64,000 bases of DNA. Source: Escherichia coli (GTDB taxonomy: Bacteria > Pseudomonadota > Gammaproteobacteria > Enterobacterales > Enterobacteriaceae). The stretch lies in assembly GCF_003334305.1 (NCBI RefSeq), contig NZ_QOWS01000025.1; one strand, 5' to 3'. Position numbers and translations under genes: made by a program. Below the pieces are notes generated by a model, which worked only from the letters and a program-made list of their open reading frames with translations, was not told the DNA's origin and ran no database searches. The stretch's first letter is position 1. Each line of letters starts with the position of its first letter. Positions 39-24,990 of this stretch are shown in pieces.

Positions 39-590
39 ATGAAAAAGAAAACAACACTTAGCGAGGAGGACCAGGCTCTGTTTCGCCAGTTGATGGCGGG
101 GACTCGCAAGATTAAGCAGGACACGATTGTCCACCGACCGCAGCGTAAAAAAATCAGCGAAGTGCCGGTGAAACGCTTGATCCAGGAGCAGGCTGATGCC
201 AGCCATTATTTCTCCGATGAGTTTCAGCCGTTATTAAATACCGAAGGTCCGGTGAAATATGTTCGCCCGGATGTCAGCCATTTTGAGGCGAAGAAACTGC
301 GCCGCGGCGATTATTCACCGGAATTGTTTTTGGATTTACACGGTCTGACGCAGCTGCAGGCCAAGCAGGAACTGGGCGCGTTGATTGCCGCCTGTCGCCG
401 CGAACATGTGTTTTGTGCCTGCGTGATGCATGGGCACGGGAAGCATATTTTGAAGCAACAAACACCGCTGTGGCTGGCACAACATCCGCATGTGATGGCA
501 TTTCACCAGGCACCGAAAGAGTACGGCGGTGATGCGGCTTTGTTGGTGTTGATTGAAGTGGAAGAGTGGTTGCCGCCGGAGTTGCCCTGA
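39..590 (+). CDS. smrB: Smr-domain protein SmrB (YfcN)
   Basis: 183-aa ORF with C-terminal Smr-like region ([42 protein letters not shown]); lies immediately upstream of the yfc fimbrial cluster as in E. coli. Confidence 0.9.
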
Positions 591-662
591 GGAGTTGAGC
601 GTGTTGTGCCAGGAGCGCGGAATGGCAGGGGCGAATGACCCTGCCAGGTGAGAAAAGGTGCG

Positions 663-1532
663 CTAATACATATTCAGTATGTAAGTGAATCGGCAGGTAG
701 AATCTATGGGCTGTCGAGATGTCGTGTCCACGCGTAGCTTCATATCATGCAGTTGCCTGGACGTAATCGGTTGCGGCTCAGGCGTCACCGTCACTTTGGC
801 ATTATCACAGCCGGAAGTCGAGAAGGTCATCTGCTGTGCGATAAAACGGCAGTAGGCACCACGCTCATCAAAATTATTCCCGTTACACAGTTTGCCATTT
901 TCCATCAGGAAAGTGGGCAGTGTTTGCTCAATAACACCACCTGTTGACTGCAACCTGACGACTTTGTTATGTACAACATAATTTTCATTCCAGGAAACAT
1001 CATACGGTGCCAGGGGCACCGCCGGACATGAAGAACTCACCTTCGTTGGGCCAATATAGTCAGGAAAATCATCATCATACGTTTTAGCGAAGGGATCTCT
1101 ACTCTTAACAAACGACGACACAATCCACGGACAACCATGTAAATTCCCATCGTAATAAACAAACATCTTTAATTCATTACATGTCCATCCCGTTTTGGTC
1201 TGGCTATCATACTGCTCTAATCCAGGACAGGCTGACATGGATACCCTGCTGTCCGAAATTTTCGACATAGATGGTTGAGTAGAACTATCGCCAGTCCACG
1301 AAACTAAATCCGGCTGTGAATTGGGCATGAATGTAGCCTTAAATATAGCGTAATTAACTGAATCTGGCGTCGCTATAATCAGATGAAACTCAAACTCTGT
1401 CGCAGGTGAACTGGCACCAGCTGGCACATATAACTCACCAACTTTCGTCGCCGCCTGGCCGCATGTATTGAACATTAACAGCAATAAAAGACATAAAACA
1501 TGACGAAGGATTTTCATTTTAAATATACTCAA
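663..1532 (-). CDS. yfcO: Yfc fimbrial-like protein YfcO (last gene of operon, putative tip component)
   Basis: 289-aa ORF with N-terminal signal peptide (MKILRHVLCLLLLLMF); real start is probably the internal Met near 1517; last gene of the yfcV-to-yfcO operon. Confidence 0.8.
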   Translation of the reverse strand: MSIFKMKILRHVLCLLLLLMFNTCGQAATKVGELYVPAGASSPATEFEFHLIIATPDSVNYAIFKATFMPNSQPDLVSWTGDSSTQPSMSKISDSRVSMSACPGLEQYDSQTKTGWTCNELKMFVYYDGNLHGCPWIVSSFVKSRDPFAKTYDDDFPDYIGPTKVSSSCPAVPLAPYDVSWNENYVVHNKVVRLQSTGGVIEQTLPTFLMENGKLCNGNNFDERGAYCRFIAQQMTFSTSGCDNAKVTVTPEPQPITSRQLHDMKLRVDTTSRQPIDSTCRFTYILNMY

Positions 1533-2058
1533 AAGTTGCTGTCAGGCTGGCGGTGAAATCACCGATGGTTACATCACGACCGCTTTTCGCCTGGATCCAG
1601 GCCCGGAAATTAATATCATTGTTGCCGTTGGTAAGCGCAAAGGTCGCCCCGGTGGTGTTGTTAATATCCACCCGCTTGCCGTCGAGCGTTTCCATCCCTA
1701 TCCCCACGCCCTGCGCGGTGGAGGTGTCATCGACTGCCAGAAAACCCGGCTGACCGCTGTCTTCGGTGCCGCTCAGCGTGACTTTGACGTTGTATCCCGC
1801 CGGCCCTTTGCAGTCTTTCAGCTTAAACACAACCGGCAGATGCGCGGACTGCCCAGATACCATCAAATCCCGGTTGCTGACGGTGGGAAAATGGATTTCT
1901 GCCAGGTTGGCACCATCCACCACCAGCGTGCAGGATTTACTCAGCAGGTTGCCGTAAAAATGCAGGTTGTTGTCGACTGCCTGAGCTCCTGTGCTGGCGG
2001 TCAGCAGCAGGCCTGCTAACAGCGCATAACCGGGTGAATAAATGTGTGCTGTTTTCAT
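1519..2058 (-). CDS. yfcP: fimbrial-like minor subunit YfcP
   Basis: 179-aa ORF with signal peptide and pilin-like C-terminal beta-strand (TATFEYI); position in yfc operon. Confidence 0.85.
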   Translation of the reverse strand: MKTAHIYSPGYALLAGLLLTASTGAQAVDNNLHFYGNLLSKSCTLVVDGANLAEIHFPTVSNRDLMVSGQSAHLPVVFKLKDCKGPAGYNVKVTLSGTEDSGQPGFLAVDDTSTAQGVGIGMETLDGKRVDINNTTGATFALTNGNNDINFRAWIQAKSGRDVTIGDFTASLTATFEYI

Positions 2059-2543
2059 TGGTAATCCACCCGTAAGGTTGCGTAAGCAGAAAAGGTCGTG
2101 TCCGTCAGCACCGCATCAGCCGCTTTGACCGGTACCGCCTCCAGCTTTGGCTTCTGGCTAAAATCGGTGGCGTTAATGGAAAGCGGCTCGTTGAGCTTAA
2201 AACGCTGACCGTCATGCTGAAGCTCAATTCCGAAGCCCGGTACATCCGTCTCAATAGCAGAGTCGTTGTAGGAGGTGGCAGTCCCCGTCCAGGAGAGTGT
2301 CATATTCCACTCGGGATCGCGGACATCCGAGTCGCAGCTCAGTTCGTAGTCCACTTTCTGACGACCATAATTGCCATCAATGCTGTCGATAATGAGATCG
2401 CGAAATTGCACTTCGATGGTTTGCCCGCCGCTGATGCTACAGGCGGGCGGCGACATCAGCGTACCGTGGAATGTGATGTCATCTTCCGCCGCCAGCACAG
2501 CCCCGCAACCAGCGCACAGTAAAAGGAGCAGGAATTTTTTCAT
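2055..2543 (-). CDS. yfcQ: fimbrial-like minor subunit YfcQ
   Basis: 162-aa secreted pilin-like ORF; 4-nt overlaps with both neighbours suggest translational coupling. Confidence 0.85.
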   Translation of the reverse strand: MKKFLLLLLCAGCGAVLAAEDDITFHGTLMSPPACSISGGQTIEVQFRDLIIDSIDGNYGRQKVDYELSCDSDVRDPEWNMTLSWTGTATSYNDSAIETDVPGFGIELQHDGQRFKLNEPLSINATDFSQKPKLEAVPVKAADAVLTDTTFSAYATLRVDYQ

Positions 2544-3049
2544 TGGTAATCCACCACCATGGTCATCGTGGCGTTAAACTCCGACGGCGTCAGTTGCACC
2601 CCGCTCTGTTTTACCGGCACCGCTTTCAGCTGAGGCTGAGTGTTGACATTAAAAGGCGTCCAGTTATTTTCACCAACTGCAAACAGGGAGTTGTCGGCGG
2701 CGTTTTCTATCCGCACCCCCAGGCCGGCGATATCCGTGCTGAGAACCGTTTCTCCGTTGATCACGGCGGTATTGCCTTTGAGCTGCATCCGTAAGTCATC
2801 GCTGACTTTATTACCGCAGTTGAGGGTGTATTTCGCATCCTGTTGGTAATTGGTACCATCGATCCTGTTGATTATCACATTGCCAAATTTCACAGCGCTT
2901 CCCTTCACGGAGCAAGGCGGCGGTCCATCGACCAGGATTCGCAGCGTCAGATCCACCTGTTTGATATCACTGCCAGCAACAGCCAAACCGCTGATGCCCC
3001 ATCCGGCCAGCACCAGCAACCCTGCGCCCGCTACAAACTTGTGACTCAT
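2540..3049 (-). CDS. yfcR: fimbrial-like minor subunit YfcR
   Basis: 169-aa secreted pilin-like ORF with C-terminal motif TMTMVVDYQ resembling that of YfcQ (ATLRVDYQ). Confidence 0.85.
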   Translation of the reverse strand: MSHKFVAGAGLLVLAGWGISGLAVAGSDIKQVDLTLRILVDGPPPCSVKGSAVKFGNVIINRIDGTNYQQDAKYTLNCGNKVSDDLRMQLKGNTAVINGETVLSTDIAGLGVRIENAADNSLFAVGENNWTPFNVNTQPQLKAVPVKQSGVQLTPSEFNATMTMVVDYQ

Positions 3050-3064
3050 AAGTCCCTCCCGGCA

Positions 3065-3817
3065 TCAGCCTTTGCGGCTCTGCTCTTCATCCACCTGGCA
3101 GCTGTTGCCGGTGCATATGAAGTACAGCGGCATCCGCGCGCCGTAGTCGTTGATGTAAGTCAGCACCGGCACGCTGTCCATCTTCGCATTCAGCGGTGCG
3201 GAGGTTTTCGGCTCCATCATCAGCGGTGTGAATCCCGCCGGCGGGTTGCCGCCTTTTTTAGCGCTGGCGTTGCTGATGATCACGTAGTACGGCGTCGGGT
3301 TATTGACGGTGAAGTCCTGGCCGTTACGGATGAGCGTCACCTTATGCTGCCACGGACTTTTCATGCTGGTGTTCTCCAGCGCCTTCGGTCGCCAGAACAG
3401 TTTGATACGCGTCTGCAGCGCAATCTGCAGTGTGTTCGGTTTATTTGATTTCGGCGGAATTTCGCGCACGTTGAAATAGAACACGCTCTCGCGGTCGGCC
3501 GGCAGTTTGTTGATATCCGGCAGCCCCTGCACCTTCACCTGGCCGTTCATCATCGCATCGATGCGCTGCACTGGCGGAAGCACCGCAAGCGGCGAGCTGA
3601 TTTTGTTGCCCTTTGCATCCTCTATCCAGCTCTGCGCCAGATAAGGCAGTGTGGGATCGTTGTTGCGCAGCGTGACGCTGATGGACTTGTCGCTTTCGTT
3701 AAACACCAGCCGTGTCCTGTCGGGCGTCACCGAAGCGTGGCTGGAGAAACTGACCGCTGTCGCCAGCAGCGCCAGTGCCGGGACAACGATTTTTGCAGTG
3801 TTAGTCAGATTAAACAT
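3065..3817 (-). CDS. yfcS: periplasmic pilus chaperone (PapD-like) YfcS
   Basis: 250-aa ORF with signal peptide and chaperone-family sequence character; position between usher and minor subunits. Confidence 0.9.
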   Translation of the reverse strand: MFNLTNTAKIVVPALALLATAVSFSSHASVTPDRTRLVFNESDKSISVTLRNNDPTLPYLAQSWIEDAKGNKISSPLAVLPPVQRIDAMMNGQVKVQGLPDINKLPADRESVFYFNVREIPPKSNKPNTLQIALQTRIKLFWRPKALENTSMKSPWQHKVTLIRNGQDFTVNNPTPYYVIISNASAKKGGNPPAGFTPLMMEPKTSAPLNAKMDSVPVLTYINDYGARMPLYFICTGNSCQVDEEQSRKG

Positions 3818-3836
3818 GGATCATTCCTTAATCACG

Positions 3837-6479
3837 TTACTGGTTTACTGAAATTGAAGTCGGAGGTTCCGTTGGCGTCACCCGCTGTGTCTGTTCCTGA
3901 ATCGCCGGTTTGACCGCCGGCGAAGTGATAGGTGCTACATTGCCTTTATGCTGGCATGGCAGTAACAAGCCGTTAAACAGATCGGCAGGCAGCGGGTCCG
4001 GCAGGTTGATATCGCAATGCGCAACACCACTCCAGAACACACTCATGTGTTCGCCAGGTTTCACCCCAGCCAGATAAACATTGCCGTCATCATCGACAAG
4101 GCCCACTGTCTGCTCGTTATCATTTTTTACTTCTGCGCCAAACGGAGGATGGCTGCCGTCTTGTAAACGCAGCACCGCCATCGCTTTTTGACCACTGATG
4201 ACGGCAAATTTGCGGTAGCCAATCGCCCCTTCAGTTAGCGTGGCTTGTACCACCGACTGGGTTGCTTCGGCGTTTTCCGGCAGTTTGTTGAGGTCGATAT
4301 ACGCCTGATTGCGGTAATAGTTATTGACGTCAGAAACGACGGCTTTACCAAACATATTGGTATAAACAGCAGCACCGTTACCTTCTACCGGAACATCGGC
4401 AACGCCATCGGCATCAATCAACAAGCGTGTCCCGCCCATATTCTGGGTACGGTGAAGTGCGCCACCGTGGGCAGTAAGCGTTGCGCCGCCCTGTAACGAC
4501 AAGCCCGCAGAGGTGTATTGCCCTTCATGGTAGTTCGCACTGAGGTCAACCTGCGCCAGCGAACCATCATGGCTGTAATAGCCGTCAACGCTGGTGTGTT
4601 TGTCACTGGTGCCGACGTTCAACTGATAGTGAGTCGCGTCATCGACACGGCTGAAATAACCGACCTGACTGCTGTCCGTCCCACTGCCATAGTTACCGTT
4701 ATAGCTAACGGTACTGTTGTCGCCCCACGGCATACTGAGCGAAATGTACATGCCTTTGTCGGCCTGGTTGTCATACTCGTAACGGTAGCCAGTCATCGAG
4801 ATGCTGACATTACGAATACTGCCCATATTGAAATAGTGCGAGAGCATGATGTTGTAGTTTGTCTGCTCCTCGCGATCCCAGTAGGTATGGCGGGTATAGT
4901 TGAGATAAACCGAAACACCCGCATCGCGGAAGTTCTGGTTATAAGTGGCGGTGTACATCTCTTTGTCGTTGCCCGTGCGTACCATTCCGCTGTCACTGGC
5001 ATCCAGATACTCGCTCATGGTCATAAAGTTCTCTTCCGAGAAGCGATATCCAGCAAAAGTAACGCGGCTGTTGAGCTGGTCAAAGTCTTTGGAATAACTC
5101 ACACGGAAGGAGTTACCGTCCAGCGAACCTTTGCCATAAGCGGTGTCTTTATCCAGTTTGGTGTGCGAGTGAGTAACATCAAACGCGACCGCGCCGAATG
5201 TAGACAAATCGCGACCGACGCCAAGCGCCGCAGACTGATAGTTTTCATCTCCCAGTGCGCCGCCATATAACGACCAGCCGTTAGCGATCCCCCAGGAAGC
5301 TTCAGCACCAGAAAAAAATTCACCCTCGACATGGTGTCCCCACTCTTGCGGACGGCCCATCATGATCTTATAGCGAACCTGACCTGGGCGAGTGAGGTAT
5401 GGCATCGAGGCGGTGCTGATGTCATATTCCTGCACCTGGCCGTTCTGTTCTTCAATGCGAATATGCAACGTACCGGAGACAGAATCACCAAGATCCTGAA
5501 TACGAAACGGTCCAGCCGGAACCTGCGTTTCGTAAATCACACGCCCCATCTGGCTGACGGTCACTTTTGCTGTGGTGTGTGCCACGCCGGAAATGTCTGG
5601 CGCGTAGCCGCGCAGATTGGGAGGCAACATTTGATCGTCAGTACTGACACTGCCACCAACATAGTTAAAACCATCAAAAATATCGGATCTGAGGTAATCC
5701 TCGCCCAGCGCCAGTTTGGCTTTTAATGATGGTAACGCCCGCCAGGCATAGTAGCGACTCCACTCCCATTTTTTTTGAGTTTCATCGCCGCTGAATTCAT
5801 CGTCATCATTACTGCGAGTATGTTGATAGTTAGTCTGCCAGTCAGCACGCATACGCCACGGCCCCAGGTTAACCCCGACCGTCCCGTTGCCGCTGATCTC
5901 GTTACTATCATCACCGCCATTTTCTTCGTGCCGGGTTTGTGCGTTGATGCTGTAGTCCGCGACGATCCCGGAGATGCCGTCATCCCAACGTGAAGGCGGA
6001 TCCCAGTCGGGATAAGTATATTCGAGGTAAGCCTGTGGCAGTGAAATGACTAATGCGGACTGGCTTAAATCAGCCTTAATTTCCATGCCTTCCAGTTGAC
6101 CGGATTTCAGGCATTTAGCATCGTGGCTCCATTGCAGATTTTTCGCCACGTCTTCTTTTAAACCAAACTGCGCTACCAGTTCCGGTGTCAGACAAGCATA
6201 GCTTTTGCTCGCGTCATCTTCACCAGCATACCAGTAAATATCGTACTCTTCCGCCAATGGCTGTTTATTTAGTTGAACCTGTAAATTGTATTTTCCGGGC
6301 TCAACATATCCCTGGCTGGAAAAACGCTTCAGATCAATTTTTGTGTCGCCTTTTAATTCCAGAAAACGGGAATCAAACTGAATGTCGTCTTCAGCCCAGA
6401 CACTGCTATAACTCCCTGACATTGCCAGCGCAATGCACCACGGAAGAATCCGTAATCGAAAAAGAGAATGGTCAGGCAT
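3837..6479 (-). CDS. yfcU: outer-membrane fimbrial usher YfcU, full length
   Basis: Uninterrupted 880-aa ORF with signal peptide, typical usher size; in K-12 this gene is a disrupted pseudogene. Confidence 0.9.
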   Translation of the reverse strand: MPDHSLFRLRILPWCIALAMSGSYSSVWAEDDIQFDSRFLELKGDTKIDLKRFSSQGYVEPGKYNLQVQLNKQPLAEEYDIYWYAGEDDASKSYACLTPELVAQFGLKEDVAKNLQWSHDAKCLKSGQLEGMEIKADLSQSALVISLPQAYLEYTYPDWDPPSRWDDGISGIVADYSINAQTRHEENGGDDSNEISGNGTVGVNLGPWRMRADWQTNYQHTRSNDDDEFSGDETQKKWEWSRYYAWRALPSLKAKLALGEDYLRSDIFDGFNYVGGSVSTDDQMLPPNLRGYAPDISGVAHTTAKVTVSQMGRVIYETQVPAGPFRIQDLGDSVSGTLHIRIEEQNGQVQEYDISTASMPYLTRPGQVRYKIMMGRPQEWGHHVEGEFFSGAEASWGIANGWSLYGGALGDENYQSAALGVGRDLSTFGAVAFDVTHSHTKLDKDTAYGKGSLDGNSFRVSYSKDFDQLNSRVTFAGYRFSEENFMTMSEYLDASDSGMVRTGNDKEMYTATYNQNFRDAGVSVYLNYTRHTYWDREEQTNYNIMLSHYFNMGSIRNVSISMTGYRYEYDNQADKGMYISLSMPWGDNSTVSYNGNYGSGTDSSQVGYFSRVDDATHYQLNVGTSDKHTSVDGYYSHDGSLAQVDLSANYHEGQYTSAGLSLQGGATLTAHGGALHRTQNMGGTRLLIDADGVADVPVEGNGAAVYTNMFGKAVVSDVNNYYRNQAYIDLNKLPENAEATQSVVQATLTEGAIGYRKFAVISGQKAMAVLRLQDGSHPPFGAEVKNDNEQTVGLVDDDGNVYLAGVKPGEHMSVFWSGVAHCDINLPDPLPADLFNGLLLPCQHKGNVAPITSPAVKPAIQEQTQRVTPTEPPTSISVNQ

Positions 6480-6560
6480 ACACGTTTCTATCCGTTTTTA
6501 TTCTTGTTCGGTCAAAATCCATTTAAATCCCCCATAGCAGTGTCGCTATGGGGGTATGCC

Positions 6561-7124
6561 TTACAGGTAAGTAATCTGGAAGGTGGTATTTGCTTCGAAA
6601 TTACCCAGATCTGGCGCATCAGCTGCGCCGACCAGCCAGGCTTTAAAGTTCAGTGTCTGCTTCGCTTTGCCTTTATTGGTAGAAGTGTCTTTCACTATTT
6701 TCTGGTCAATACCCATGCCGCTTTTGTAAGAGGTACCCAGAGAGTCACCGATCGCTAGGCTAACATTGTTAAATGCCGCACCGGTATCGGTATTGAAAAT
6801 GGTGTAATAATTGCCGCTATTTGCAGAAGAAACGGTACCAGTAAAGGTAGTGGTCATTGTTTCCTGAGTATCAAATACGCAATCTTGCAGACGAATCTGG
6901 AAACTTTTCGGCGTGGTGGTGCCGTTATTTTTCAGTTTTTCGGCACCGATATCACCCATATCAACTTCCAGTTTGTGATCGTCCGGAACGATAGAACACA
7001 CTGAGTCTTCAATGGTGCCGTAAAAACGTGCAGTACCGTTGTTACCCGCAGCGATTGTTGCCGTAGAGGTGAAAACGCCCATCACCATTGCCGCAGCAAT
7101 AGCTGTTTTAACAAACTTACTCAT
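6561..7124 (-). CDS. yfcV: major fimbrial subunit YfcV
   Basis: 187-aa ORF with signal peptide and pilin-like C-terminus (TTFQITYL); first gene of operon, preceded by a long AT-rich control region. Confidence 0.85.
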   Translation of the reverse strand: MSKFVKTAIAAAMVMGVFTSTATIAAGNNGTARFYGTIEDSVCSIVPDDHKLEVDMGDIGAEKLKNNGTTTPKSFQIRLQDCVFDTQETMTTTFTGTVSSANSGNYYTIFNTDTGAAFNNVSLAIGDSLGTSYKSGMGIDQKIVKDTSTNKGKAKQTLNFKAWLVGAADAPDLGNFEANTTFQITYL

Positions 7125-7752
7125 TATTTGTCCTTAAACTATAAATAATTAAAAATATAAACATTACAATACATTGATTCAGTCAATACCCAATGTTTAT
7201 ACCCAGCCATTGAATACGGCATGCGATCCAAAAAGAACAGGTCGTAGAAAATTGTATTCTTTGGTGTGGGGCCGCATAGTGATGTTTTCACCCCCCTGAT
7301 GCAATTTAATTTTACTAAAGAGTAAATGTAGATTTAATTAATATATTGACAGAAGAAAGGTTATCTTAAGGACATCCTTAAAAAATACGGAATAAGTATT
7401 TAGAAAAAATAGAAAGTATATCAATAATGAATATCAACAGCTTAAAAAACAAACAATGAACATATAATGCGATTGGCATTTATCCACTTTTGACAATATA
7501 ATATATAAACACTATAGCCAGAATTTAATCAAGTTTCAATTACATCCTGCCTGATTATTCAACTCTATTATCTGTATTAATAAATGACAATGAGTGTCAA
7601 ACAGACATTATTCATTTCAACATGTAACTTTGGGCAAAATCAAGATACGCGCAGAAGAATAATTTCCGAATGAATGTAGAAAGTGTTTTATTTATAGATA
7701 AGGAGAGTCTTCGATAGTAGTGAGGTTGACAGATATCCGCTGCCTGATGAGC

Positions 7753-7789
7753 AATTATGCCCAATGAATCTACCTCATTGGGCATAATT
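7753..7789 (-). terminator. stem-loop downstream of sixA (15-bp perfect stem, weak U-tract)
   Basis: AATTATGCCCAATGA-atctacc-TCATTGGGCATAATT begins about 9 nt after the sixA stop codon. Confidence 0.45.
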
Positions 7790-7798
7790 TGGAACACA

Positions 7799-8284
7799 TC
7801 AGATAGCTTTTGCCATCTTCAGATTACACGGGCTCATCTGCCAGTTGAATGTACCGTTTCCGCTTTCATCAAGCGTTACGCTGGCAATGGCCGAGGTGGT
7901 AAACATAGGCGGCGTTTCGCCCGGACATAACTCGGCAACCAGATACCCGACTAACGGTAAGTGAGAGATCACCAGTACCGAAGCAACACCTTCATTGGTC
8001 AACGCCTGCAAATAGGCACTGACCAGACCAACATCGCCGCAGGGCGTTAACTCCGGCAGAACTTCTGCACTGGAAGGCAGGTTCAGACAATCCCCCACTT
8101 CTTCCAGTGTTTGCTCGGCTCGCAGGAACGGGCTCACCAGAACGCGTTCGATTTCCACTTTTTGACCTTTCAGCCAGTTCGCCATCAGGCGAGATTCGTC
8201 ACAACCATTAGTGGTCAGAGGACGAACGGAATCACTGGCGGCATCGAGGGCTGCGTCGCCGTGACGCATGATAAAAACTTGCAT
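7799..8284 (-). CDS. sixA: phosphohistidine phosphatase SixA
   Basis: 161-aa ORF beginning MQVFIMRHGDA (histidine phosphatase RHG motif); conserved position downstream of fadJ. Confidence 0.95.
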   Translation of the reverse strand: MQVFIMRHGDAALDAASDSVRPLTTNGCDESRLMANWLKGQKVEIERVLVSPFLRAEQTLEEVGDCLNLPSSAEVLPELTPCGDVGLVSAYLQALTNEGVASVLVISHLPLVGYLVAELCPGETPPMFTTSAIASVTLDESGNGTFNWQMSPCNLKMAKAI

Positions 8285-8486
8285 ATTGCACCGCTTTTGT
8301 TAACCAGATTCGCCCGTTTTCTTTCATCTGAAACCAGAGAAAGAAAACGGTGGCCGGCATTGTGCCTTATCCATTCACCGAATGAAACGCTGTTTTTTAC
8401 CTCAATGGCGTAAGTATAGTCAATATGCGTTTACATTTTGACCAACACTCCGCCATTCAGCGCGGATTCATATAGCTTTGACCTTC

Positions 8487-19615: not shown

Positions 19616-20530
19616 CTATTCCAGTTCTTGTCGACATGGCAGCGCTGTCATTGCCCCTTTCGCCGTTACTGCAAGCGCTCCGCAACGTTGAGCGAGATCG
19701 ATAATTCGTCGCATTTCTCTCTCATCTGTAGATAATCCCGTAGAGGACAGACCTGTGAGTAACCCGGCAACGAACGCATCTCCCGCCCCCGTGCTATCGA
19801 CACAATTCACAGACATTCCAGCAAAATGGTGAACTTGTCCTCGATAACAGACCACCACACCTTCTGCACCTTTAGTCACCAACAGCATGGCGATCTCATA
19901 CTCTTTTGCCAGGGCGCATATATCCCGATCGTTCTGTGTTTTTCCACTGATAAGTCGCCATTCTTCTTCCGAGAGCTTGACGACATCCGCCAGTTGTAGC
20001 GCCTGCCGCAAACACAAGCGGAGCAAATGCTCGTCTTGCCATAGATCTTCACGAATATTAGGATCGAAGCTGACAAAACCTCCGGCATGCCGGATCGCCG
20101 TCATCGCAGTAAATGCGCTGGTACGCGAAGGCTCGGCAGACAACGCAATTGAACAGAGATGTAACCATTCGCCATGTCGCCAGCAGGGCAAGTCTGTCGT
20201 CTCTAAAAAAAGATCGGCACTGGGGCGGACCATAAACGTAAATGAACGTTCCCCTTGATCGTTCAGATCGACAAGCACCGTGGATGTCCGGTGCCATTCA
20301 TCTTGCTTCAGATACGTGATATCGACTCCCTCAGTTAGCAGCGTTCTTTGCATTAACGCACCAAAAGGATCATCCCCCACCCGACCTATAAACCCACTTG
20401 TTCCGCCTAATCTGGCGATTCCCACCGCAACGTTAGCTGGCGCGCCGCCAGGACAAGGCAGTAGCCGCCCGTCTGATTCTGGCAAGAGATCTACGACCGC
20501 ATCCCCTAAAACCCATACTTTGGCTGACAT
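19616..20530 (-). CDS. cscK: fructokinase CscK (PfkB/ribokinase family)
   Basis: 304-aa ORF with PfkB-family motifs (VLGDAVVD near N-terminus, DSTGAGDAF near C-terminus); upstream of cscB on the same strand. Confidence 0.93.
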   Translation of the reverse strand: MSAKVWVLGDAVVDLLPESDGRLLPCPGGAPANVAVGIARLGGTSGFIGRVGDDPFGALMQRTLLTEGVDITYLKQDEWHRTSTVLVDLNDQGERSFTFMVRPSADLFLETTDLPCWRHGEWLHLCSIALSAEPSRTSAFTAMTAIRHAGGFVSFDPNIREDLWQDEHLLRLCLRQALQLADVVKLSEEEWRLISGKTQNDRDICALAKEYEIAMLLVTKGAEGVVVCYRGQVHHFAGMSVNCVDSTGAGDAFVAGLLTGLSSTGLSTDEREMRRIIDLAQRCGALAVTAKGAMTALPCRQELE

Positions 20531-20636
20531 TTTTTTCCCTTAAATTCATCTGAGTTACGCATAGTGATAAACCTCTTTTTCGCAAAAATCGTCATGGATT
20601 TACTAAAACATGCATATTCGATCACAAAACGTCATA

Positions 20637-20648
20637 GTTAACGTTAAC
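20637..20648. promoter_or_regulatory. candidate CscR operator 1 (perfect palindrome GTTAACGTTAAC)
   Basis: 12-bp perfect palindrome in the divergent cscK/cscA intergenic region; repeated identically 64 bp downstream. Confidence 0.5.
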
Positions 20649-20651
20649 ATT

Positions 20652-20667
20652 TGTGATATTCATCGCA
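20652..20667. promoter_or_regulatory. CRP-like site between the two csc operators
   Basis: TGTGAtattcaTCGCA matches TGTGA-N6-TCACA in 9 of 10 positions. Confidence 0.3.
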
Positions 20668-20700
20668 TTTATGAAAGTAAGGGACTTTATTTTTATAAAA

Positions 20701-20712
20701 GTTAACGTTAAC
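20701..20712. promoter_or_regulatory. candidate CscR operator 2 (perfect palindrome GTTAACGTTAAC)
   Basis: Second identical copy about 30 bp upstream of the cscA start; AT-rich flanks. Confidence 0.5.
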
Positions 20713-20746
20713 AATTCACCAAATTTGCTTAACCAGGATGATTAAA

Positions 20747-22180
20747 ATGACGCAATCTCGATTGCATGCGACGCAAAACGCCCTAGCAAAACTTCATGAG
20801 CACCGGGGTAACACTTTCTATCCCCATTTTCACCTCGCGCCTCCTGCCGGGTGGATGAACGATCCAAACGGCCTGATCTGGTTTAACGATCGTTATCACG
20901 CGTTTTATCAACATCACCCGATGAGCGAACACTGGGGGCCAATGCACTGGGGACATGCCACCAGCGACGATATGATCCACTGGCAGCATGAGCCTATTGC
21001 GCTAGCGCCAGGAGACGATAATGACAAAGACGGGTGTTTTTCAGGTAGTGCTGTCGATGACAATGGTGTCCTCTCACTTATCTACACCGGACACGTCTGG
21101 CTCGATGGTGCAGGTAATGACGATGCAATTCGCGAAGTACAATGTCTGGCTACCAGTCGGGATGGTATTCATTTCGAGAAACAGGGTGTGATCCTCACTC
21201 CACCAGAAGGAATCATGCACTTCCGCGATCCTAAAGTGTGGCGTGAAGCCGACACATGGTGGATGGTAGTCGGGGCGAAAGATCCAGGCAACACGGGGCA
21301 GATCCTGCTTTATCGCGGCAGTTCATTGCGTGAATGGACCTTCGATCGCGTACTGGCCCACGCTGATGCGGGTGAAAGCTATATGTGGGAATGTCCGGAC
21401 TTTTTCAGCCTTGGCGATCAGCATTATCTGATGTTTTCCCCGCAGGGAATGAATGCCGAGGGATACAGTTACCGAAATCGCTTTCAAAGTGGCGTAATAC
21501 CCGGAATGTGGTCGCCAGGACGACTTTTTGCACAATCCGGGCATTTTACTGAACTTGATAACGGGCATGACTTTTATGCACCACAAAGCTTTTTAGCGAA
21601 GGATGGTCGGCGTATTGTTATCGGCTGGATGGATATGTGGGAATCGCCAATGCCCTCAAAACGTGAAGGATGGGCAGGCTGCATGACGCTGGCGCGCGAG
21701 CTATCAGAGAGCAATGGCAAACTTCTACAACGCCCGGTTCACGAAGCTGAGTCGTTACGCCAGCAGCATCAATCTGTCTCTCCCCGCACAATCAGCAATA
21801 AATATGTTTTGCAGGAAAACGCGCAAGCAGTTGAGATTCAGTTGCAGTGGGCGCTGAAGAACAGTGATGCCGAACATTACGGATTACAGCTCGGCACTGG
21901 AATGCGGCTGTATATTGATAACCAATCTGAGCGACTTGTTTTGTGGCGGTATTACCCACACGAGAATTTAGACGGCTACCGTAGTATTCCCCTCCCGCAG
22001 CGTGACACGCTCGCCCTAAGGATATTTATCGATACATCATCCGTGGAAGTATTTATTAACGACGGGGAAGCGGTGATGAGTAGTCGAATCTATCCGCAGC
22101 CAGAAGAACGGGAACTGTCGCTTTATGCCTCCCACGGAGTGGCTGTGCTGCAACATGGAGCACTCTGGCTACTGGGTTAA
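20747..22180 (+). CDS. cscA: sucrose-6-phosphate hydrolase / invertase CscA (GH32)
   Basis: GH32 motifs (WMNDPNG, FRDP, WECPD); ORF track starts at 20738, but the Met at 20747 gives the 477-aa form I recall for CscA (either start is possible). Confidence 0.93.
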   Translation: MTQSRLHATQNALAKLHEHRGNTFYPHFHLAPPAGWMNDPNGLIWFNDRYHAFYQHHPMSEHWGPMHWGHATSDDMIHWQHEPIALAPGDDNDKDGCFSGSAVDDNGVLSLIYTGHVWLDGAGNDDAIREVQCLATSRDGIHFEKQGVILTPPEGIMHFRDPKVWREADTWWMVVGAKDPGNTGQILLYRGSSLREWTFDRVLAHADAGESYMWECPDFFSLGDQHYLMFSPQGMNAEGYSYRNRFQSGVIPGMWSPGRLFAQSGHFTELDNGHDFYAPQSFLAKDGRRIVIGWMDMWESPMPSKREGWAGCMTLARELSESNGKLLQRPVHEAESLRQQHQSVSPRTISNKYVLQENAQAVEIQLQWALKNSDAEHYGLQLGTGMRLYIDNQSERLVLWRYYPHENLDGYRSIPLPQRDTLALRIFIDTSSVEVFINDGEAVMSSRIYPQPEERELSLYASHGVAVLQHGALWLLG

Positions 22181-22187
22181 CATAATA

Positions 22188-23183
22188 TCAGGTGGAACAA
22201 CGGATCAACAGCGGGCAAGGGATCCGCGTCACTCTTCCCCCTTCACGACCTTCAATAATATGCAATGCAGCTTCCCGCCCGATAATGTCATGTGGAAGCT
22301 GAATTGTGGTCAGCGGCGGTAAAAACAGATGCCCGACGCCAACCAGATTATCAAAGCCCATTACGGCGACATCCTGCGGGATACGTACCCCCTTCGCCAG
22401 GAGAACCTGATAAGCGACAAAGGCTGCGCGATCGTTACCACATATCAGAACATCAAAATCTGGTTTGCCCGGTTTGAAGTGGGCATTGAGTAAACTTGCG
22501 AGATCGGTGTAGTGATCATCACCTGTTGCCATGTGAAATTGTTTCACCTCAGCCAGATCTCGTCCAGCATCACGCCAGGCCTGCTCAAATCCCTGCCGAC
22601 GATACCCTGTTGCCAACGCACTTTCCGGTAGCCAGAAGCATAACGGTTGACGATAGCCCGCCGCGAGCAAATGCTGTGTTGATTCATATTGTGCAGTGTA
22701 ATCATCAGGGATATAACTGGGTAACGCTGGGTCATCCGCCACACAGTTCGCCAATACAATATTTTCACCATACAGAGACTCAGGCAGCGTGATATGTCGC
22801 AGCCCCATTGTAGTATAGATAATGCCATCCGGACGGTGGGCAAGCAGCTGACGTGCCGCGCGGGCAGCGTCATCTTCAGAAAAAATATTGATTAAAAAAC
22901 TATTCCAGCCGAACTCGCTGGCGGTTTGCTCAATGGCAAGCAGAATATCAACAGAGAAAGGAGTGGTAGCCGTGTCCTGCGCCAGCACGGCGAGAGTCGA
23001 CGGCTTACGTCCTTGAGCGCGCATCTTACGGGCGGAAAGATCAGGAACATAATTCAGGGTCTGGATTGCCTGCAATACGCGGTCACGCGTTGCAGGACGC
23101 ACAGATTCTGCATTATGCATCACCCGGGAGACTGTCATCATCGACACTCCCGCCAGGCGTGCGACATCCTTTAATGAAGCCAT
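22188..23183 (-). CDS. cscR: LacI-family sucrose operon repressor CscR
   Basis: Start moved to internal Met (MASLKDVARLAGVSMMTVSRV, an HTH LacI-type N-terminus), giving 331 aa; the 397-aa track ORF carries a non-coding 5' extension. Confidence 0.9.
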   Translation of the reverse strand: MASLKDVARLAGVSMMTVSRVMHNAESVRPATRDRVLQAIQTLNYVPDLSARKMRAQGRKPSTLAVLAQDTATTPFSVDILLAIEQTASEFGWNSFLINIFSEDDAARAARQLLAHRPDGIIYTTMGLRHITLPESLYGENIVLANCVADDPALPSYIPDDYTAQYESTQHLLAAGYRQPLCFWLPESALATGYRRQGFEQAWRDAGRDLAEVKQFHMATGDDHYTDLASLLNAHFKPGKPDFDVLICGNDRAAFVAYQVLLAKGVRIPQDVAVMGFDNLVGVGHLFLPPLTTIQLPHDIIGREAALHIIEGREGGRVTRIPCPLLIRCST

Positions 23184-23425
23184 ACCCAAGCCGTTTGCCG
23201 TAAAACGGGCACTGTAGCAGAAACAGACGTCACTGGCGAGATCCAACGATATTCTCAACGCCCTATCACCCAACACGGCAATACAATAAAAAATAACAAT
23301 AATTGCCGGATAATTGTACTCAATTCCGCCTCTGTTCTCGCCAACGAGTAACCATATAGGCAAGTAAGTAAAACATGCCAACTGGCATCGCCAACCTGGA
23401 GAAGAAAATATAAATATGGATCATT

Positions 23426-23644
23426 GTGCTGCCGCTGTATCCCGACATCAGCCCGGAAATTATTGCGATTGCTATCGGTTCAGGTGCAATTGGCTGCACG
23501 ATCGTTACGGACTCGCTTTTCTGGCTAGTGAAGCAATATTGCGGCGCTACGCTCAATGAAACATTTAAATACTATACGACAGCGACATTTATCGCTTCAG
23601 TCGTCGCTCTGGCGGGCACATTCCTGCTGTCATTTATCATCTAA
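23426..23644 (+). pseudogene. dsdX: 3' remnant of a GntP-family permease gene, most likely dsdX (D-serine transporter), truncated by the csc islet
   Basis: 72-codon frame ending 18 nt before dsdA with GntP-type C-terminal motifs (ISPEIIAIAIGSGAIG, DSLFWLVKQY); no matching N-terminal region or promoter present. Confidence 0.6.
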
Positions 23645-23661
23645 GCGCAAAGAGACGTACT

Positions 23662-24990
23662 ATGGAAAACGCTAAAATGAACTCGCTCATCGCCCAGTAT
23701 CCGTTGGTAAAGGAGCTGGTTGCTCTTAAAGAAACCACCTGGTTTAATCCTGGCACGACCTCATTGGCTGAAGGTTTACCTTATGTTGGCCTGACCGAAC
23801 AGGATGTTCAGGACGCCCATGCGCGCTTATCCCGTTTTGCACCCTATCTGGCAAAAGCATTTCCTGAAACTGCTGCCACTGGGGGGATTATTGAATCAGA
23901 ACTGGTTGCCATTCCAGCTATGCAAAAACGGCTGGAAAAAGAATATCAGCAACCGATCAGCGGGCAACTGTTACTGAAAAAAGATAGCCATTTGCCCATT
24001 TCCGGCTCCATAAAAGCACGCGGCGGGATTTATGAAGTCCTGGCACACGCAGAAAAACTGGCTCTGGAAGCGGGGTTGCTGACGCTTGATGATGACTACA
24101 GCAAACTGCTTTCTCCGGAGTTTAAACAGTTCTTTAGCCAATACAGCATTGCTGTGGGCTCAACCGGAAATCTGGGGTTATCAATCGGCATTATGAGCGC
24201 CCGCATTGGCTTTAAGGTGACAGTTCATATGTCTGCTGATGCCCGGGCATGGAAAAAAGCGAAACTGCGCAGCCATGGCGTTACGGTCGTGGAATATGAG
24301 CAAGATTATGGTGTTGCCGTCGAGGAAGGACGTAAAGCAGCGCAGTCTGACCCGAACTGTTTCTTTATTGATGACGAAAATTCCCGCACGTTGTTCCTTG
24401 GGTATTCCGTCGCTGGCCAGCGTCTTAAAGCGCAATTTGCCCAGCAAGGCCGTATCGTCGATGCTGATAACCCTCTGTTTGTCTATCTGCCGTGTGGTGT
24501 TGGCGGTGGTCCTGGTGGCGTCGCATTCGGGCTTAAACTGGCGTTTGGCGATCATGTTCACTGCTTTTTTGCCGAACCAACGCACTCCCCTTGTATGTTG
24601 TTAGGCGTCCATACAGGATTACACGATCAGATTTCTGTTCAGGATATTGGTATCGACAACCTTACCGCAGCGGATGGCCTTGCAGTTGGTCGCGCATCAG
24701 GCTTTGTCGGGCGGGCAATGGAGCGTCTGCTGGATGGCTTCTATACCCTTAGCGATCAAACCATGTATGACATGCTTGGCTGGCTGGCGCAGGAAGAAGG
24801 TATTCGTCTTGAACCTTCGGCACTGGCGGGTATGGCCGGACCTCAGCGCGTGTGTGCATCAGTAAGTTACCAACAGATGCACGGTTTCAGCGCAGAACAA
24901 CTGCGTAATACCACTCATCTGGTGTGGGCGACGGGAGGTGGAATGGTGCCGGAAGAAGAGATGAATCAATATCTGGCAAAAGGCCGTTAA
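23662..24990 (+). CDS. dsdA: D-serine dehydratase (D-serine ammonia-lyase), PLP-dependent
   Basis: 442-aa ORF ([31 protein letters not shown]) with PLP-lysine region (SGSIKARGG). Confidence 0.96.

Follow-up and report, generated by a model that had tools for sequence, protein, structure and literature searches.

This report concerns the Yfc chaperone-usher fimbrial operon in a 64,000-nt stretch of Escherichia coli DNA (contig NZ_QOWS01000025.1 of assembly GCF_003334305.1), hereafter the window, and in particular its outer-membrane usher gene, yfcU. The operon is complete, with its genes in the order yfcV-U-S-R-Q-P-O and every gene on the minus strand, and it lies between sixA and smrB. Positions 600-7800 of the window match, with 100% identity, the chromosome of E. 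coli H15 (NZ_CP010178), whose RefSeq annotation lists seven intact yfc genes and zero pseudogene flags. The features of the locus, with the evidence for each in brackets, are as follows.

39-590, plus strand: smrB, flanking gene
663-1517, minus strand: yfcO, predicted tip adhesin of the StfH/YfcO family, 284 amino acids (Pfam DUF2544, RefSeq name)
1519-2058, minus strand: yfcP, minor pilin subunit, 179 amino acids (StfG homology)
2055-2543, minus strand: yfcQ, minor pilin subunit, 162 amino acids (StfF homology)
2540-3049, minus strand: yfcR, minor pilin subunit, 169 amino acids (StfE homology)
3065-3817, minus strand: yfcS, PapD-like periplasmic chaperone, 250 amino acids (PapD and StfD homology)
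3837-6479, minus strand: yfcU, outer-membrane usher, 880 amino acids (open reading frame, Pfam, NF011812, PapC)
3931-3940, no strand: approximate recombination breakpoint at the yfcU 3' end, gene nt ~2540-2549 (identity drop, alignment ends)
4746-4748, minus strand: codon 578 of yfcU, TAC (Tyr578), which is TAG (codon 579) in K-12 (translated alignment)
6529-6554, minus strand: yfcV-yfcU intercistronic hairpin, in the 81-nt spacer (RNA fold)
6561-7124, minus strand: yfcV, major fimbrial subunit, 187 amino acids (StfA homology, H15 annotation)
7125-7798, minus strand: 674 bp of AT-rich DNA preceding yfcV, presumably its promoter and regulatory region (GC content, consensus matches)
7799-8284, minus strand: sixA, flanking gene

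The tight spacing of the genes, already remarked upon in a preliminary description of this DNA, is plain from the coordinates: yfcR and yfcQ overlap by 4 nt (2540-2543), as do yfcQ and yfcP (2055-2058), and the remaining intergenic gaps measure 1 nt (yfcP/yfcO), 15 nt (yfcS/yfcR), 19 nt (yfcU/yfcS) and 81 nt (yfcV/yfcU). The same description had credited the operon with intact genes for the major subunit, chaperone, usher and four minor subunits. All of these frames are indeed open, but the count of minor subunits needs amending, to three of pilin type plus the DUF2544 protein YfcO, the putative adhesin. K-12 has the same gene order, and its SmrB and SixA, encoded on either side of the operon, are 100% identical to those of the window. 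An Rfam scan of the window returned three tRNAs only and no match at the yfc locus.

The usher gene is a single open reading frame on the minus strand (3837-6479) that starts with ATG and whose translation of 880 amino acids contains zero internal stops; an open frame of 880 codons is far beyond chance in DNA of ~52% GC. Its product matches the NCBIfam usher subfamily model NF011812, for which the RefSeq name is YfcU, from end to end and without a gap (1888 bits against a cut-off of 972; residues 1-880 against 1-881 of 881), and the uninterrupted 880-residue usher of the preliminary description is thereby upheld. Both the score above the model cut-off and the chromosomal site, which is shared with K-12 yfc, place the protein in the YfcU orthologue group. 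The N-terminal periplasmic domain that recruits chaperone-subunit complexes is present (PapC_N, PF13954; residues 34-180 against model positions 1-146 of 146, E 2.6e-36), as are the complete outer-membrane barrel region including the plug (Usher, PF00577; residues 198-758 against model positions 3-549 of 549, E 1.5e-191) and the C-terminal periplasmic domains (PapC_C, PF13953; residues 769-825), all three being Pfam matches. The closest solved structure is that of PapC (7lhg_C, E 5e-216), which aligns in one stretch (residues 34-843 against 2-806 of 809), and the isolated PapC C-terminal domain structures 3l48 and 2kt6 align to residues 757-843. Encoded in the same operon beside a PapD-like chaperone, four pilin-type genes and an adhesin gene, the predicted protein is a full-length PapC-type usher of the chaperone-usher pathway (PapC/FimD family) with no part missing.

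The N-terminus of YfcU, MPDHSLFRLRILPWCIALAMSGSYSSVWA/EDD (...SYSSVWA/EDD), reads by eye as a putative signal peptide with a basic n-region, a hydrophobic core and VWA/EDD at residues 27-29. This reading fits the PapC alignment, since the latter begins at residue 34 of YfcU and residue 2 of the PapC chain. At the other end of the protein, residues ~844-880 (window 3837-3950, minus strand) form a proline-rich low-complexity tail that extends past the PapC-aligned region; it is the part most divergent from K-12, and the recombination breakpoint listed above coincides with it.

The comparison with K-12 turns on a single codon. A RefSeq MG1655 genome flags yfcU as a pseudogene with an 'internal stop', and the alignment with K-12 yfcU that the preliminary description had proposed, and which was run to locate the lesions, finds only one: K-12 codon 579 is TAG (amber), against TAC in the window. 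The context of the codon is GGCATGTACATTTCG (GGC ATG TAC ATT) in the window and GGCATGTAGATTTCG (GGC ATG TAG ATT) in K-12. The two ushers are otherwise 96% identical, with 33 differences of which 13 fall within the last 30 residues. The statement in the preliminary description that K-12 yfcU is a disrupted pseudogene is accordingly correct, and so is its remark that the fimbriae are cryptic, which a published survey reports together with their repression by H-NS in K-12 (PMC3559732). The K-12 cluster has also been listed as yfcOPQRSTUV and assigned to the pi type (PMC3032704, Table 5); we read yfcT and yfcU in that older list as the two parts into which the K-12 usher was formerly divided, an interpretation that is ours and not a statement of that paper.

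PMC5343171 relates, citing Korea 2010, that K-12 forced to express yfc showed no visible fimbriae but bound T24 cells ~10-fold better. An obvious candidate cause of this lack of fimbriae is the amber codon in the usher. Our literature search found no paper on the K-12 amber codon and none testing it as the cause of the missing fimbriae; full-text matches to 'yfcU' were mostly to the unrelated yeast yFCU marker used in Plasmodium.

The partners of the usher carry the hallmarks of their families. The chaperone YfcS matches PapD (7lhg_D) with an E-value of 9e-59; its Arg36 and Lys139 align with Arg8 and Lys112 of PapD, the pair that anchors the C-terminus of the subunit, and its C-terminal Cys235/Cys240 pair aligns with that of PapD. 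Each of the four pilin-type proteins has a pair of cysteines and a tyrosine two or three residues before the C-terminus; the pairs are Cys43/Cys82 in YfcV and Cys46/Cys78 in YfcR, and the C-termini read ...FQITYL (YfcV), ...VVDYQ (YfcR), ...RVDYQ (YfcQ) and ...TFEYI (YfcP). YfcO is covered by the Pfam domain DUF2544 over residues 48-282 (E 1e-59) and its RefSeq product name is 'StfH/YfcO family fimbrial adhesin'; sequence searches found no relative of it in the PDB and no receptor for it. A Foldseek search of the PDB with a predicted model of YfcO returned generic tandem beta-sandwiches (antibodies and gp350 of Epstein-Barr virus) at template-modelling (TM) scores <0.3, which were disregarded as meaningless.

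Two characterised systems provide the closest points of reference. The first is Stf of Salmonella enterica (stfACDEFGH), of which yfc is the E. coli orthologue (PMC5343171). The best NCBIfam homologies of the window proteins are to StfA, the Stf usher, StfD, StfE, StfF and StfG, and YfcO belongs to the StfH/YfcO family. The scores of the subunits and chaperone nonetheless lie well under the Stf equivalog cut-offs: YfcV matches the StfA model (NF011811) end to end at 104 bits (cut-off 267), YfcS the StfD model at 319 bits (447), YfcR the StfE model at 146 bits (264), YfcQ the StfF model at 146 bits (253) and YfcP the StfG model at 148 bits (253). When expressed, Stf fimbriae are visible by electron microscopy, and StfH is their adhesin (PMC5343171). 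The second system is the P pilus (Pap) of uropathogenic E. coli, the model system of the pi clade. Among solved structures, the nearest to YfcU and YfcS are PapC and PapD; Yfc retains every usher domain and the chaperone Arg8/Lys112 pair, and both operons place the usher gene before the chaperone gene and the adhesin gene last. They differ in that the Yfc locus is without papI/papB-type genes and has a single upstream GATC, and in that YfcO, a DUF2544 protein, is unrelated in sequence to PapG. In pairwise comparison YfcU scores 723 bits against PapC and 268 bits against FimD, and the Yfc system of the window probably belongs to the Pap-like pi clade.

The locus is strongly mosaic. The operon occupies the same sixA-smrB site as in K-12, and its similarity to K-12 falls along its length. 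The amino-acid identities are 98% for YfcV, 96% for YfcU, 83% for YfcS, 70% for YfcR, 77% for both YfcQ and YfcP and 41% for YfcO. Within yfcU itself, the identity drops to 0.86 and then 0.72 across the last 240 nt. The window is 100% identical to strain D97-1 over 4001-8400 and only 40-80% identical below ~4000, and many genomes align to the usher gene only as far as query nt 2540 or 2549, which together place a breakpoint near 3931-3940, in the C-terminal tail of the usher. Upstream of this point the window resembles K-12 and D97-1, and downstream of it a different allele of the tip cassette begins, so that the distal genes of the window and of K-12 are different alleles. Strain Z142-1 is ~99% identical to the window throughout, save for the 5' half of yfcO, where a second breakpoint falls at ~1000-1500. 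The distal half of the operon (window 663-4000) is a recombining allele cassette. The version present in the window is common: of the 5426 complete genomes compared, 196 carry it with at least 99% identity and 571 have a match covering at least 80% of it. This agrees with published observations that yfc genes are highly diverse, that their phylogenies are at odds with multilocus sequence typing and that alternative clusters occupy the site (PMC4850163, PMC3032704).

The variation is greatest in YfcO. Among the alleles of eight strains the pairwise identity is 34-71%, save for one near-identical pair (99%). Compared with the window allele, the others are least alike in the first quarter of the alignment (16-39% identity) and most alike in the last (53-89%). 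All alleles retain the eight cysteines of the mature protein. The pattern mirrors that of Salmonella StfH, whose alleles differ mainly in their N-terminal half with altered cell binding and tropism (PMC5343171). The N-terminal half of YfcO is presumably the receptor-binding part, and because the distal cassette recombines, the receptor specificity of the fimbria probably differs from that of K-12.

The region between sixA and yfcV, which the preliminary description had called an AT-rich promoter, is AT-rich as claimed (GC content 0.34 over 7001-7500) and 92% identical to K-12; its role as a promoter is inferred. It contains several sigma-70-like matches on the minus strand, among them 7539 to 7511 (10 of 12 consensus positions) and 7590 to 7562 (9 of 12). 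A 15-nt perfect inverted repeat with a 7-nt loop (7753-7789) directly follows the sixA stop codon and is probably the sixA terminator, marking the upstream limit of the yfc regulatory region. No regulator open reading frame was found between sixA and yfcV, nor any papI/papB-like genes at the locus.

Two switching mechanisms known from other fimbriae were considered and rejected. Phase variation of the Pap type, governed by Dam and Lrp, was set aside on account of the missing papI/papB-like genes and of a lone GATC within 7125-7798 (at 7225-7228), where two ~100 bp apart would be expected. An invertible switch of the fimS type was set aside too: the inverted repeats upstream are 9-11 nt long, which is chance level in AT-rich DNA, one of them overlaps the ribosome-binding site of yfcV, no recombinase gene is present at the locus, and none of the genome matches listed is in inverted orientation. 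The window as a whole carries 278 GATC sites against 239 +/- 14 in dinucleotide-preserving shuffles, none of 100 of which reaches 278; this excess is mild, genome-wide and unrelated to the yfc finding.

A second feature of potential regulatory interest lies in the spacer between yfcV and yfcU. The hairpin at 6529-6554 pairs 11 bp without a mismatch around a 4-nt loop, precedes AUUUAAAU, folds with -22.2 kcal/mol (z = -3.86; 0 of 200 shuffles as stable) and is conserved in K-12 with one base differing. A simple terminator scan missed it; inspection of the sequence revealed it and the fold bore it out. By analogy with other chaperone-usher operons, the hairpin may act as an mRNA stabiliser, an attenuator or a partial terminator favouring the major subunit.

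Taken together, these features make it highly probable that the window carries the ordinary, intact Yfc chaperone-usher operon of non-K-12 E. coli at its usual site between sixA and smrB, and that the contrast with K-12 comes down to one nonsense mutation. By analogy with the Pap and Fim systems, from which the assembly mechanism is extrapolated, the subunits would be exported via Sec and each capped in the periplasm through donor-strand complementation by YfcS, with its conserved Arg/Lys anchoring pair. The N-terminal domain of YfcU would then recruit the chaperone-subunit complexes, the plug would be displaced, and donor-strand exchange catalysed by the usher would polymerise the fibre, which leaves the cell tip first. 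The fibre is predicted to begin with the YfcO adhesin, to continue with YfcP, YfcQ and YfcR in the role of tip or adaptor subunits, and to end in the YfcV rod. H-NS bound to the AT-rich 674-bp upstream region probably silences the operon in laboratory culture, and the stable hairpin after yfcV probably tilts expression towards the major subunit. K-12 has gained the TAC to TAG change at usher codon 579, the window keeping the ancestral codon.

Several points weigh against so straightforward an account. The pilins and chaperone of the window, falling below the Stf cut-offs, are best classed as homologues at an orthologous locus rather than as equivalogs. The AlphaFold2 model of YfcO, built from a 7-sequence alignment, has a mean predicted local distance difference test (pLDDT) score of 61, with the N-terminal domain alone moderately confident. 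The promoters upstream of yfcV are presumed ones, namely matches to a consensus, which are no evidence of function, and the signal peptides were judged by eye. Finally, the operon decays sporadically and independently in natural strains, which shows that it is dispensable in some settings. In a sample of 12 non-K-12 strains, drawn across the BLAST ranking and not at random, the usher is disrupted in two: RM13745 has suffered a deletion associated with IS3 that runs from the 3' end of yfcV into the 5' end of yfcU (L012 4282-7876), and XH993 has lost nearly the whole operon beside an IS1 (L014 7675-8945). Strain 504239 has an internal stop in yfcO (L006 667-1524), and a minor-subunit gene is disrupted in O157:H7 146N4 (L009 2108-2517).

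These lesions, with the K-12 amber codon and the AT-rich, presumably H-NS-silenced promoter region (PMC3559732), also lend some support to the strongest of the rival explanations, according to which the operon has intact reading frames and is nevertheless a silent relic, never expressed in nature and drifting to loss, so that the 'potentially functional' of the preliminary description would mislead. We consider this improbable. The usher is intact in 10 of the 12 sampled strains (H15, D9, NCTC86, Z142-1, 504239, ZF8-1, D97-1, O157:H7 146N4, TUM1223 and MB10). Against five other alleles, including some with a synonymous divergence (dS) >1 and up to ~2, yfcU has a ratio of non-synonymous to synonymous change (dN/dS) of 0.05-0.09, and such strong purifying selection at deep divergence means that the gene is maintained by selection. 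YfcO varies mostly in its N-terminal half and leaves the mature protein's cysteines untouched, as does a protein that is in use. Higher levels of yfcV transcript are reported in some Shiga toxin-producing E. coli (PMC6033998), and PMC5343171, citing others, states that yfc genes contribute to bladder colonisation.

A second rival would make the intact usher a derived trait of this strain, a reversion or re-acquisition that sets it apart from typical commensal E. coli. The contrast with K-12 is all that speaks for it, and the population counts have already refuted it. Across the 5426 genomes, the 61-mer centred on the K-12 TAG occurs exactly in 363, and those of its 100%-identity matches that were listed all come from K-12 or laboratory-derived strains. 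The same K-12-type 61-mer with TAC occurs exactly in 1320 genomes, and the window-type version of the stretch accounts for ~1250 more (1252 matches in the 90-95% identity band). In 3527 genomes a collinear match spans at least 80% of the usher gene, and in 1233 of these it is at least 99% identical; beyond the sampled strains, intactness is judged from this collinear BLAST coverage and from the 61-mer counts. D9 (from a dog) and NCTC86 share the K-12 protein accession numbers for YfcV, S, R, Q, P and O, yet their YfcU is intact. An earlier survey likewise describes Yfc as core-associated: nearly all E. coli have it at this locus, and every genome examined there has it intact (PMC3559732). The contrast implied by the preliminary description is in fact reversed: the intact usher is the ancestral and common state of E. 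coli and the amber codon is a lesion of the K-12 laboratory lineage, and this strain is therefore not unusual.

The last rival, that the intactness is an assembly artefact masking a frameshift or stop codon, found no point in its support and has a negligible probability: the usher gene is 100% identical in the independent genome NZ_CP027462, at least four more strains, from different hosts, have a distal cassette 100% identical to that of the window, and YfcU matches its family model end to end without a gap. A frameshift emerging on resequencing, which the preliminary description had named as grounds for refutation, is unlikely because the identical sequence recurs in independent genomes.

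Outside the yfc locus, the window contains a csc sucrose-utilisation cluster (17781-24990) downstream of a tRNA-Arg(CCU) gene (17781-17855). Its genes are the following.

18297-19544, minus strand: oligosaccharide transporter gene of the major facilitator superfamily (MFS), csc cluster
19616-20530, minus strand: kinase gene, csc cluster
20747-22180, plus strand: cscA, csc cluster
22188-23183, minus strand: LacI-family regulator gene, csc cluster

The cluster adjoins a truncated dsdX (23426-23644) and an intact dsdA (23662-24990). It looks like the known replacement of dsdCX by csc at argW.

The observation of a full-length usher is thus correct and its interpretation sound, but what it describes is the usual state of a catalogued, core-associated operon and is already known. 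The lineage-specific amber codon in its usher makes K-12 a poor reference for Yfc fimbriae; natural isolates such as this one keep a complete, selectively maintained Yfc operon. For any study of the fimbriae, an allele like that of the window, or K-12 with codon 579 repaired, would be preferable. We regard it as possible, if somewhat short of an even chance, that the real interest of the locus lies in the cassette-like exchange of the distal genes, with YfcO alleles conferring different receptor or host specificities and the K-12 amber codon accounting for the lack of visible fimbriae. The allelic diversity of YfcO is the sole aspect of the operon with the potential for new biology, in receptor specificity and host tropism.

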